A stretch of DNA of 64,000 nucleotides, from NCBI RefSeq assembly GCF_058153355.1, contig NZ_CM177019.1. One strand, given 5' to 3'. The position numbers and the translations under genes are program-made. Below are positions 9,748-51,124 of the stretch, piece after piece. The notes under the pieces are model-generated. The model was not told the origin of the DNA and did not search any database. It was given only the letters and a program-made list of their open reading frames with translations. How positions within the stretch are numbered: position 1 is the first letter of the stretch; each line of letters begins with the position of its first letter.

Positions 9748-10996
<1,249 letters not shown>

Positions 10997-11026
10997 CATG
11001 CCTGCAATCTGGGAAACCGGGGTAGA

Positions 11027-11060
<34 letters not shown>

Positions 11061-24229: not shown

Positions 24230-24375
24230 TAGGATGGCGAGGCAGCATAGGGCTACAACGGTAAAGCCCTCACCGAAGCGAGGGCTTGAAGGAGAAGGGT
24301 TATGATGCGACTCGTCATCATACTGATTGTACTGTTACTCATAAGTTTCCCAGCTTATTAACAGTCAGTCACAGG
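24230..24375 (-). ncRNA. sibC: SibC antisense sRNA (antitoxin to ibsC); ends approximate
   Basis: Inferred from the known Sib/Ibs arrangement in which the sRNA fully overlaps the toxin ORF on the opposite strand; boundaries not determinable from sequence alone. Confidence 0.45.
24302..24361 (+). CDS. ibsC: type I toxin IbsC (19-aa hydrophobic peptide)
   Basis: GAAGGAGAAGGG Shine-Dalgarno then ATGATGCGACTCGTCATCATACTGATTGTACTGTTACTCATAAGTTTCCCAGCTTATTAA = MMRLVIILIVLLLISFPAY; too short for the ORF track. Confidence 0.8.
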   Translation: MMRLVIILIVLLLISFPAY

Positions 24376-24461
24376 GGAGGAGCAATCCTCCCTTACCCTT
24401 ACTCACTAAATTAGGTCAAAGAATCAACGATGTCAATCAGGGCGATGCAGGTGTGTCGCCC

Positions 24462-25082: not shown

Positions 25083-25268
25083 AGGGAATCTCCGAGATGC
25101 CGCCGCAGGCTGTAACCCTTGAACCCTTGGTTCAAGGTGAATGTGTCGTCACAGTTTTAAGGCTTCTCGGACGGACCGAGCATGCTCACCAACCGCGGAG
25201 CGCCACATTCTTGTGGTATGAAATATCGGCTCAGGGGACTGGCCCGCTTGCGAACATCTCAGAGAAAT
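25083..25268 (-). ncRNA. ssrS: 6S RNA
   Basis: Reverse complement reads ATTTCTCTGAGATGTTCGCAAGCGGGCCAGTCCCCTGAGCCGATATTTCATACCACAAGAATGTGGCGCTCCGCGG...GGAGATTCCCT, the 6S RNA sequence. Confidence 0.93.
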
Positions 25269-38745: not shown

Positions 38746-38776
<31 letters not shown>

Positions 38777-38806
38777 TCTACCCCGGTTTCCCAGATTGCA
38801 GGCATG

Positions 38807-40190
<1,384 letters not shown>

Positions 40191-46227: not shown

Positions 46228-47326
46228 ATGTTTGAAATTAATCCGGTAAATAATCGCATTCAGGACCTCACGGAACGCTCCGACGTTCTTAGGGGGTATC
46301 TTTGACTACGACGCCAAGAAAGAGCGTCTGGAAGAAGTAAACGCCGAGCTGGAACAGCCGGATGTCTGGAACGAACCCGAACGCGCACAGGCGCTGGGTA
46401 AAGAGCGTTCCTCCCTCGAAGCCGTTGTCGACACCCTCGACCAAATGAAACAGGGGCTGGAAGATGTTTCTGGTCTGCTGGAGCTGGCTGTAGAAGCTGA
46501 CGACGAAGAAACCTTTAACGAAGCCGTTGCTGAACTCGACGCCCTGGAAGAAAAACTGGCGCAGCTTGAGTTCCGTCGTATGTTCTCTGGCGAATATGAT
46601 AGCGCCGACTGCTACCTCGATATTCAGGCAGGTTCTGGCGGTACGGAAGCACAGGACTGGGCGAGCATGCTTGAGCGTATGTATCTGCGCTGGGCTGAAT
46701 CGCGTGGTTTCAAAACTGAAATCATCGAAGAGTCGGAAGGTGAAGTGGCGGGTATTAAATCCGTGACTATCAAAATCTCCGGCGATTACGCTTACGGCTG
46801 GCTGCGTACTGAAACCGGCGTTCACCGCCTGGTGCGCAAGAGCCCGTTTGACTCCGGCGGTCGTCGCCACACGTCGTTCAGCTCCGCGTTTGTTTACCCG
46901 GAAGTCGATGATGATATCGATATCGAAATCAATCCGGCGGATCTGCGCATCGACGTTTATCGCGCATCCGGCGCGGGTGGTCAGCACGTTAACCGTACCG
47001 AATCTGCGGTGCGTATTACTCACATCCCAACCGGGATTGTGACCCAATGCCAGAACGACCGTTCCCAGCACAAGAACAAAGACCAGGCCATGAAGCAGAT
47101 GAAAGCGAAGCTTTATGAACTGGAGATGCAGAAGAAAAATGCCGAGAAACAGGCGATGGAAGATAACAAATCTGACATCGGCTGGGGCAGCCAGATTCGT
47201 TCTTATGTCCTTGATGACTCCCGCATTAAAGATCTGCGTACCGGGGTAGAAACTCGTAACACGCAGGCAGTGCTGGACGGCAGCCTGGATCAATTTATCG
47301 AAGCAAGTTTGAAAGCAGGGTTATGA
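46228..47326 (+). CDS. prfB: peptide chain release factor 2, requires programmed +1 frameshift
   Basis: Frame-0 ATG at 46228 runs 25 codons to in-frame TGA at 46303-46305 within AGGGGGTATCTTTGAC; +1 frame from 46304 continues to 47326 and contains the SPF and GGQ motifs. Confidence 0.93.
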
Positions 47327-48853: not shown

Positions 48854-48888
48854 GCATTACGTTATGCTCACAACCCCGGCAAATGTCG

Positions 48889-50314
48889 TAATGCCAGTCA
48901 GTTAAGCAACTGACTGGCTCTTTTTCGGGGCTGTGGGGTATTTCCAGGGCCTCTCCTTTACCACTCTCGGGAAGGCCCTTTCCCTTCTTGTCGGTAATTT
49001 CACAAGTTGTCCCATACTTGCAAGATCGCGCATCAGCTCCGGTATACGTCCCGGTGAAGCGCCCTGCAATGTCATCAGCATTCTCATCACCATTCCGCAT
49101 GATTCTGAGAAACTCAGTTGATTCGGCCAGTAACCTTTCAGATGTTCCGCCATTTTAATCATCTGATATCTCACCAGATTATAAGCCAGTAAGACACCCC
49201 ACAGCTCTTGCTCCACAAGCTCCGGCTTTTTACTTCTCAGCGTCAGCCTGCTCAGTTGCATCGTCTGTTTTATCTCCCTGTATCCCAGTTCGATTTCCCA
49301 GCGATGACTGTACAGATCCGCCATTTCTCCTCCGGGGAAGCGCATGGCGTCCGTCATCGACGTCAGCAGATGGCAGACTTTTCCTTTGCGCGTCACGGTC
49401 AGCAGGCGGGCTGTCACTTCATTTCCCAGTCCCGGCCACTTTTTTCGTGCCTGCGGGCTGGTTTTCAGCTTCACCAGATGATCGCCTTTACCCAGTTTTC
49501 TGATCTCTTCATATTGCGCTCCCTTTCTGAGAGGTATCATCCAGTGGCGGTGTTCTCCCGCCAGGCTCCAGGCATTTAACAGTCCCAGTGAGTAATAACC
49601 TTTATCCATTAACGTCAGAGTGTTATCGCCGGTTTGTTCTATAAGTTGCTCAGCAAGCTCATTTTCGCTGTTCTTCATCGTGCCGAAGGCTGCAGCCGTC
49701 AGCAGATGGCTGGTCAGTTCCATCTGGCAGACCATTTTGACCTGCGGGTAGAGCGCCGGGTTCCCGGCATGTGTCTGGCGGGGGAAGGCTGCATCGTTCT
49801 CTGGTGTATCCGGTGTGCGCCAGAACACACCATCGATGGCCAGCAGGGTCAGGCCGCACCAGTGCGGATGCGGCGTGGCGTTATGCCAGAGCTGCGCTGT
49901 TTTCGTGAACACGCGGCGGACAGCCTCACTTCCCAGGCGCTGGCGGGCCTGAATAACGGCACTGGGGGCAACGAAGGGGCGATTGCCCGGCAGCATGATG
50001 TCCAGGCGATTCACAATCTGGTGAAGAGGTTCTTTACGCTCAAGCGCCATGCCAACAATACACCAGACCATCATTTCGAGGGGAAGACGGCGCTTGCGTA
50101 GCGTTACAGTACCTGATTCGGCAAGGCAACGAGAGATGAGTTCGGGGTCGAGGTAATCCCCCAGAGAAGTCAGTGGGTTACGCAGAGAATCGTAACGGGA
50201 TACCAGATCAAGAGCCTGTCCAATGTGCATAAAAAAATCCGGAAACAAGTGAGCGTTTCCGGATTCTTACACAGCCACTGGATCGGTCAACTGATCCTTA
50301 ACTGATCGGCATTA
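48889..50314 (-). mobile_element. IS4 insertion sequence
   Basis: 1426 bp; 18-bp imperfect terminal inverted repeats TAATGCCAGTCAGTTAAG (48889-48906) and CTTAACTGATCGGCATTA (50297-50314); flanked by 12-bp direct repeat CGGCAAATGTCG at 48877-48888 and 50315-50326. Confidence 0.92.
48902..50230 (-). CDS. insG: IS4 transposase
   Basis: Start at ATG 50230 ([14 protein letters not shown]); 442 aa; the ORF-track start at 50248 is not ATG. Confidence 0.9.
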
Positions 50315-50333
50315 CGGCAAATGTCGGGGTTTT

Positions 50334-50877
50334 TTATTTAAGCTGGGTAAATGCAGATAATCGTTTTCTGGCTTCGCGATTTGTCGCCTGCATCACCATC
50401 CACGGACTGAACGCCCACGGCGTGGCATCAATACCGCGTAAAACCGCTGCTAAATCACACCATTGATAATCCATCACTTCATCATCGTTGATCTGTAACG
50501 CACTGGTCGTGCGTGCGGCAAATACCGGACATACTTCATTTCTACAATGCCATTCGGATCGGTGGCGCGATAGCGAAAGTCAGGATAGATTCAGGAGGTG
50601 TAATTTCCACGCCAAGCTCATAACGGCAACGGCGGATCACCGCGTCTTCGTTGCTTTCTCCCAGTTGTGGGTGCCCACAAACCGAGTTAGTCCACACGCC
50701 CGGCCATGCTTTTTTGCTAAGGGCGCGGCGGGTAACTAATAATTGCCCTTTGGCATTAAACAGCCAGCAGGAGAACGCGAGATGTAAGAGAGTGTCTGCC
50801 GTGTGTGCGGCATACTTTTCCAGCGTACCCGTGGGAACTCCCTGTGCATTCAATAAAATGACGTGTTCCGTTTGCAT
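50334..50877 (-). pseudogene. idi: isopentenyl-diphosphate isomerase, disrupted by frameshifts
   Basis: N-terminal 111 codons (50542-50877) end at a premature stop; the Idi-like C-terminus ([13 protein letters not shown]...[17 protein letters not shown]) continues in a different frame to the stop at 50334-50336. Locus is 544 bp against 549 expected for a 182-aa gene. Confidence 0.7.
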
Positions 50878-50998
50878 AATTTCTCACATGTAATTCTAAT
50901 CACTCATCATTATAGATAATTGAAGAGTGAAATGATTAACCAAGTGAGCGTTTATCGACAACCGCCCGTTTTGAGCGGATGTCGACAGGTAAAACCAT

Positions 50999-51124
50999 TT
51001 AAAAAAGCAGCATCATATATTTGAAGCGACTTTCAATGGCCATTGCAACACAGTCAGAAATGACAGGAATAGAGAGAGTAAAAAGCAACAACAGACTGAA
51101 TATAGCGCGCATTAAAAGATTCAT
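50999..51124 (-). CDS. small hydrophobic protein (41 aa), possibly coupled to uacT
   Basis: ATG at 51122-51124 lies 1 nt after the uacT stop (TAATATG) with GGAG 9 nt upstream; product MNLLMRAIFSLLLLFTLSIPVISDCVAMAIESRFKYMMLLF; below the ORF-track length cut-off. Confidence 0.4.
   Translation of the reverse strand: MNLLMRAIFSLLLLFTLSIPVISDCVAMAIESRFKYMMLLF

Follow-up and report, generated by a model that had tools for sequence, protein, structure and literature searches.

In Escherichia coli K-12, idi (b2889) encodes a type 1 isopentenyl-diphosphate Delta-isomerase (Idi) of NUDIX fold for which several structures are available (PDB 1HZT, 1I9A, 1NFS and others), and lies between yqfH and lysS. 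The enzyme binds its metal through His25, His32, His69, Glu114 and Glu116. Its catalytic residues, as given in the passage of PMC3509576 that cites Wouters et al. 2003, are Cys67, Tyr104 and Glu116. The gene is nonessential according to the passages of PMC6833178 and PMC10434171 that cite Hahn et al. 1999, and a Keio delta-idi strain is viable (PMC10434171). In wild-type E. coli, Idi is below detection (<10 copies per cell), and the output of IspH has an IPP:DMAPP ratio of about 5:1 (PMC6833178). Frameshifted idi genes that carry the same 4-bp lesion as the one described below are already annotated in other E. coli genomes.

Here we describe the idi locus of a divergent E. coli, contained in a window of 64,000 nucleotides (the whole stretch of DNA analysed; contig NZ_CM177019.1 of RefSeq assembly GCF_058153355.1). 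This gene is the orthologue of K-12 idi and likewise stands between yqfH and lysS; unlike K-12 idi, its frame is broken twice, so that only native residues 1-98 remain and Tyr104, Glu114 and Glu116 are missing from the product. We consider it very probable that the locus is a real and very recent pseudogene which arose through two slippage-type deletions, and whose loss is tolerated by way of IspH.

Methods

The window allele was aligned with K-12 idi at the nucleotide level, translated in the three frames of the minus strand, and compared with intact alleles from complete RefSeq genomes. Recurrence of the 4-bp deletion was assessed with a 50-nt query spanning the deletion junction, which could match 2112 complete E. 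coli genomes. Reproducibility of the lesions was judged from Logan assemblies of SRA runs, reached via an exact look-up of the 111-aa product of the broken gene; one of these runs, SRR31441161, possibly derives from the window isolate itself. Protein and RNA features were assigned with NCBIfam and Rfam models. Coordinates of all features discussed are collected in Table 1.

Table 1. Positions of the idi lesions and of neighbouring and other features in the window
Feature	Position	Strand	Description
IS110-family copy 1	9763-11057	+	1295 bp; between fbaA and mscS
Sib antitoxin RNA	24286-24436		Rfam match; ibsC on opposite strand
6S RNA (ssrS)	25085-25268		Rfam match
IS110-family copy 2	38746-40040	-	1295 bp; between trhA and ygfZ
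naRNA4 (REP-derived)	40030-40107	both	Rfam match; abuts end of second IS110-family copy
prfB programmed +1 frameshift site	46291-46306		AGGGGGTATCTTTGAC
Left target-site duplication	48877..48888		12 bp, CGGCAAATGTCG
IS4	48889..50314	-	1426 bp; inserted in hairpin common to lysS and idi 3' ends
Terminator-like hairpin, IS4 left end	48893-48918		11 pairs, then T-run; begins 40 bp past lysS stop
IS4 transposase ORF	48902-50248	as idi	NF033592 IS4 family, 304 bits versus cut-off 115
Right target-site duplication	50315..50326		12 bp, CGGCAAATGTCG
idi pseudogene	50334..50877	-	orthologue of K-12 b2889 with two frameshifting deletions; 544 bp versus 549
3' remnant of idi	50334..50538	-	third frame, native residues 115-182, to ...FTQLK and stop; no start codon joined
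1-bp deletion site	50539..50541	-	AAA versus AAAA in intact alleles; directly 3' of premature TAG
Remaining 5' ORF of idi	50542..50877	-	longest from native ATG; 111 codons + TAG at 50542-50544
GTG-to-GTA variant (Val113)	50542-50546		synonymous; source of out-of-frame TAG
4-bp deletion site	50584..50590	-	residual ATCTATC; intact alleles ATCTATCTATC (K-12 idi nt 288-298)
yqfH	50932-51002	+	30-codon ORF instead of 23 codons

Results and discussion

Comparison of the locus with K-12 and with intact alleles

Alignment of the window gene to b2889 gives 95.3% identity over 549 columns, with 21 substitutions and 5 gap positions, and the surrounding genes (ygfT / uacT-yqfG / yqfH / idi / lysS-prfB) are arranged as in K-12, so that the conserved context uacT-yqfG-yqfH-idi-lysS-prfB is retained. 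Once the five missing bases are restored, the gene encodes a 182-aa Idi that differs from the K-12 protein at 5 of 182 residues and aligns over residues 1-182 with PDB 1I9A (E = 1e-121), that is, with full-length homology to the characterised E. coli enzyme. The closest intact allele among complete RefSeq genomes is that of strain 24A16CRGN010, from which the window gene differs by the two deletions only; with zero substitutions separating the two alleles, inactivation must have been very recent. The protein of the repaired gene is also encoded in 745 blocks of public assemblies; at each of the eight places shown among these, lysS comes directly after the intact gene and IS4 is absent.

Individual genes of the window are about 93-99% identical to their K-12 counterparts, and the idi-proximal third of the window shares 99.0-99.4% identity with the closest complete RefSeq genomes. 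Apart from idi, the complete K-12 coding sequences compared in the window align without gaps and keep their frames, with the single exception of the 23-codon yqfH. General genome decay of the kind seen in Shigella was considered for the window and rejected, as these other coding sequences are intact, yqfH excepted, despite the presence of three IS copies.

The yqfH difference is a 1-nt indel relative to K-12 that lengthens the ORF. The closest relatives whose idi is intact have the same variant, with the annotation 'hypothetical protein'; it is therefore a variant of the lineage and no part of the decay of idi. Elsewhere in the window, a Sib antitoxin RNA and 6S RNA are found at their expected K-12 positions.

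Two deletions and the remaining product

The 4-bp gap is placed by the nucleotide alignment at K-12 idi nt 288-291 and could be put anywhere within the ATCTATCTATC tract; it amounts to the loss of one ATCT unit and affects codons Ser97-Ile98-Tyr99. The 1-bp gap falls at nt 341, in the A4 run (nt 341-344) of GAAAAT, at codons Glu114-Asn115. In the minus-strand translation, frame 1 reads MQTEH...EITPPESI, frame 3 takes over after PPESI and encodes IYPDF, and frame 2 holds the 3' part of the gene, ending in ...SAFTQLK and the stop codon.

The original prediction, made from the letters alone, had described this three-frame switch, a locus of 544 bp instead of 549, a 4-bp loss in a tandem tetranucleotide repeat and a 1-bp loss in an A run, all of which the translation and the alignment to b2889 reproduce. 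It had further read the 4-bp lesion as a change of ESIYPDF into ESI/DF; one ATCT unit is indeed gone, but the residues are not lost, as ESI (frame 1) and IYPDF (frame 3) overlap on the ATCTATC that remains. Its main claim, that idi is a pseudogene, agrees with a frame that is not restored and a TAG after codon 111.

Together the two deletions remove a net 5 bp, so the second does not compensate the first. Translation from the native ATG would yield native residues 1-98 followed by 13 out-of-frame residues, and this 111-aa product matches the NCBIfam idi model NF002995 only at profile positions 4-102 of 185. The TAG comes as early as it does because of the GTG-to-GTA variant of the window allele. 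An uninterrupted frame of 182 codons is thus no longer present, nor are Cys67, Tyr104 and Glu116 joined in one polypeptide, since Cys67 is kept and the other two are absent; Glu114, which we take to be a ligand of the metal, is likewise missing. We would expect no residual Idi activity from the broken gene.

All three pieces of idi are still readable and undecayed, as they would be if the gene were kept functional through translational recoding, with two ribosomal frameshifts, or as a split enzyme; this lack of decay is explained by the recency of the lesions, and we give such continued function practically no credence. For recoding, the ribosome would have to shift twice, at points about 50 nt from each other and the first time ahead of the in-frame TAG, and one codon would be missing from a conserved segment. 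Neither a slippery heptamer nor a Shine-Dalgarno-like stimulator like that at prfB was seen when idi was inspected by eye. As for a split enzyme, the 3' piece has been cut off from the start codon, and the only ORF listed within it is a 47-codon GTG ORF.

The programmed +1 frameshift site of prfB is itself present and intact in the window, and contrasts with the non-programmed frameshifts of idi.

Reproducibility of the lesions

The 111-aa ORF occurs on three Logan contigs, two of which were returned (from runs SRR8656992 and SRR31441161). Both contain the two deletions as well as the IS4 junction, and both stop about 30 bases into the end of IS4; a contig break at a repeat is expected of short-read assembly. 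Over 10,587 bp the SRR31441161 contig is identical to the window, and that of SRR8656992 differs from it by 3 SNPs in 10,587 bp, which means that at least two distinguishable isolates carry both lesions. The lesions are reproduced, then, in independent sequence data of the lineage.

These observations bear on whether the indels might be errors of sequencing or assembly, with an intact idi in the organism. The step from A4 to A3 does lie in a homopolymer, a classic error site on some platforms, and exact queries in two allele contexts find the 1-bp deletion in no complete RefSeq E. coli genome. The loss of 4 bp is, however, no homopolymer error, the two lesions occur in two separately assembled SRA runs of which one represents a distinguishable isolate, and an A6 run elsewhere in the same gene, longer than the one affected, is unchanged. 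Every other complete coding sequence compared in the 64-kb window, yqfH aside, also aligns to K-12 without a gap. An artefact is accordingly very unlikely, and the correct annotation of the locus is that of an idi pseudogene (frameshifted), not of a gene and not of a sequencing error.

The adjacent IS4 insertion

IS4 has a canonical length of 1426 bp and duplicates 11-13 bp of its target. The element next to idi has this length, a DDE transposase, terminal inverted repeats (its ends are TAATGCCAGTCAGTTAAG and CTTAACTGATCGGCATTA) and target-site duplications within this range. That the deletions lie in a gene right next to IS4, as had been predicted, holds closely: 19 bp separate the right end of the element (50314) from the last base of the idi stop codon (50334), and 12 of these are target-site duplication. 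Comparison with the empty sites of K-12 and 24A16CRGN010 reveals that IS4 split the hairpin CCCCGGCAAATGTCGGGG of the convergent genes lysS and idi. The left end of the element brings a strong terminator-like hairpin of its own (Table 1), which could substitute for the native terminator destroyed by the insertion.

Among complete E. coli genomes, the same IS4 junction is matched in strains BEN5202, GCUET01, MS 21-1 and FDAARGOS_1249, whose idi alleles are about 95-97% identical to that of the window. In BEN5202, where this was checked directly, IS4 has the same position and orientation as in the window, yet the idi coding sequence is an intact 549 bp. GCUET01, MS 21-1 and FDAARGOS_1249 are represented here by a match through the junction, and their gene is listed as idi. 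The occurrence of one junction next to several idi alleles suggests that the lysS/idi terminator is a sequence-specific hot spot for IS4.

A role of IS4 in the decay of idi, whether through a transposition-associated deletion or by polar silencing that came first, might be read from its distance of 19 bp from the idi stop codon, from the split of the shared terminator hairpin, and from the fact that every carrier of the double deletion also has the IS4 junction. The element lies downstream of idi, though, and hence cannot be polar on it, and the deletions are 225-275 bp away from the IS end and in simple repeats. Moreover, an intact idi stands beside an IS4 of identical site and orientation in BEN5202, the junction is matched in three more strains, and strains PK6 and ET846 have lost the 4 bp without having IS4 there (see below). 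We regard such a role as extremely improbable. IS4 is a neighbour of the idi pseudogene, and nothing observed connects it causally with the decay.

Recurrence of the 4-bp deletion

An identical 4-bp deletion is present in two of the 2112 matchable complete genomes, those of PK6 (NZ_CP042588.1) and ET846 (NZ_CP100895.1), and in both the RefSeq/PGAP annotation describes idi as 'frameshifted'. The same ATCT unit has been lost at the same tract as in the window; unlike the window, PK6 and ET846 have no IS4 downstream and no 1-bp deletion, and their shifted frame, without the GTG-to-GTA variant, runs to codon 135 rather than 111. Apart from the deletion, PK6 has the K-12 allele, and the ET846 allele is separated from that of PK6 by 26 substitutions and from that of the window by 31. 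At the SNPs that flank the deletion most closely, 9 nt upstream and 21 nt downstream of it, the three carriers are not alike. Parsimony therefore strongly favours three independent origins over a transferred patch of less than 30 bp.

The neighbourhood of idi in ET846 (NZ_CP100895.1; positions 1-2219 of the locus examined) is altered in another respect. An IS1 copy lies just upstream of yqfH and directly beside xdhA, from which it follows that uacT and many neighbours have been deleted or rearranged near the frameshifted idi.

Loss of one unit of a tandem repeat is a classic product of slipped-strand mispairing. The ATCTATCTATC tract comprises 2.75 tetranucleotide units and is, by a simple script, the longest non-triplet short tandem repeat in idi; Tandem Repeats Finder reported no repeat in the gene, the tract being too short for it. 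Slipped-strand mispairing is the probable origin of the deletions in idi, and the tract is a slippage hot spot whose tandem repeat adequately explains the recurrence of the 4-bp loss.

No exact match to the 1-bp deletion was obtained among complete E. coli genomes with two allele contexts as queries, a search that carriers with nearby SNPs could escape. The exact 72-nt sequence spanning both deletions has no match among genomes representing each GTDB species once, and an exact-product look-up returned no record of the protein that the 1-bp deletion alone would give. The broken idi allele is restricted to a small sub-lineage of divergent E. coli.

Probable origin of the two lesions and expected tolerance of the loss

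In the course of events that we favour, there would have been two slippage-type deletions, one taking an ATCT unit out of the tandem repeat and the other an A out of the A4 run, and whichever deletion came first would have inactivated idi. On its own, the 4-bp deletion would already lead to a TAG after 111 codons and to a product without Tyr104 and Glu116; the other lesion would then have struck, neutrally, a gene no longer under selection. Either lesion may have been the earlier one: the 111-aa product is the same with or without the 1-bp deletion, and the protein expected from the 1-bp deletion alone has no record. With about 50 bp between them and zero substitutions, the indels are somewhat more clustered than is expected of independent neutral hits, and if two hits were placed uniformly over 544 bp, they would lie this close together ~19% of the time (a rough estimate). 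Both indels may therefore stem from one complex event or from a mutator episode.

The dispensability of idi, assumed in the original prediction, has support in the literature (Hahn et al. 1999, in the passage of PMC6833178 that cites it). Loss of the gene would be tolerated because IspH makes both IPP and DMAPP: with this enzyme of the MEP pathway supplying the two, E. coli would have no need of the isomerase, and the loss of idi would be neutral.

The identical deletion on three allele backgrounds, together with two hits in the window idi next to untouched neighbours, could also be taken to indicate that loss of idi is adaptive, the recurrence reflecting parallel selection for inactivation and not only a hot spot. 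We hold this to be unlikely. The deletion is rare, with two carriers among 2112 matchable complete genomes, and the broken window allele is on 3 contigs versus 745 blocks for the intact form. All of the carriers look like tip lineages in which decay has gone no further. Idi is barely expressed, so that removing it would save little cost, and the recurrence needs no more explanation than a tandem repeat of a tetranucleotide. It is just as doubtful that ATCTATCTATC (ATCT-ATCT-ATC) serves as a recurrent mutational switch, by which selection in some niche would shut off the interconversion of IPP and DMAPP. The loss of idi in the window, by our preferred reading of slippage in a dispensable gene, is an ordinary, recent and lineage-restricted one.

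In strains of the sub-lineage, the DMAPP:IPP ratio would be set by IspH alone, which is relevant only if such a strain is used in terpenoid engineering. The 4-bp deletion on three backgrounds also provides a small case of homoplasy where a tandem repeat is prone to slippage, and phylogenetic and pan-genome pipelines should not take it, where shared, as a sign of shared ancestry.

IS110-family copies elsewhere in the window

Two 100% identical copies of an IS110-family element that resembles IS621 are present at a distance from idi. The 326-aa protein of each copy scores 253 bits against NCBIfam NF033542 ('IS110 family RNA-guided transposase'). Both copies are intergenic and absent from K-12 at their respective sites. 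They are inverted relative to each other and about 27.7 kb apart, and recombination between them could invert the intervening segment. An Rfam match to naRNA4, which is REP-derived, abuts the end of the second copy (Table 1). Insertion targeted to REP sequences has reportedly been observed for IS621, and the adjacency to naRNA4 would fit an insertion of this kind.
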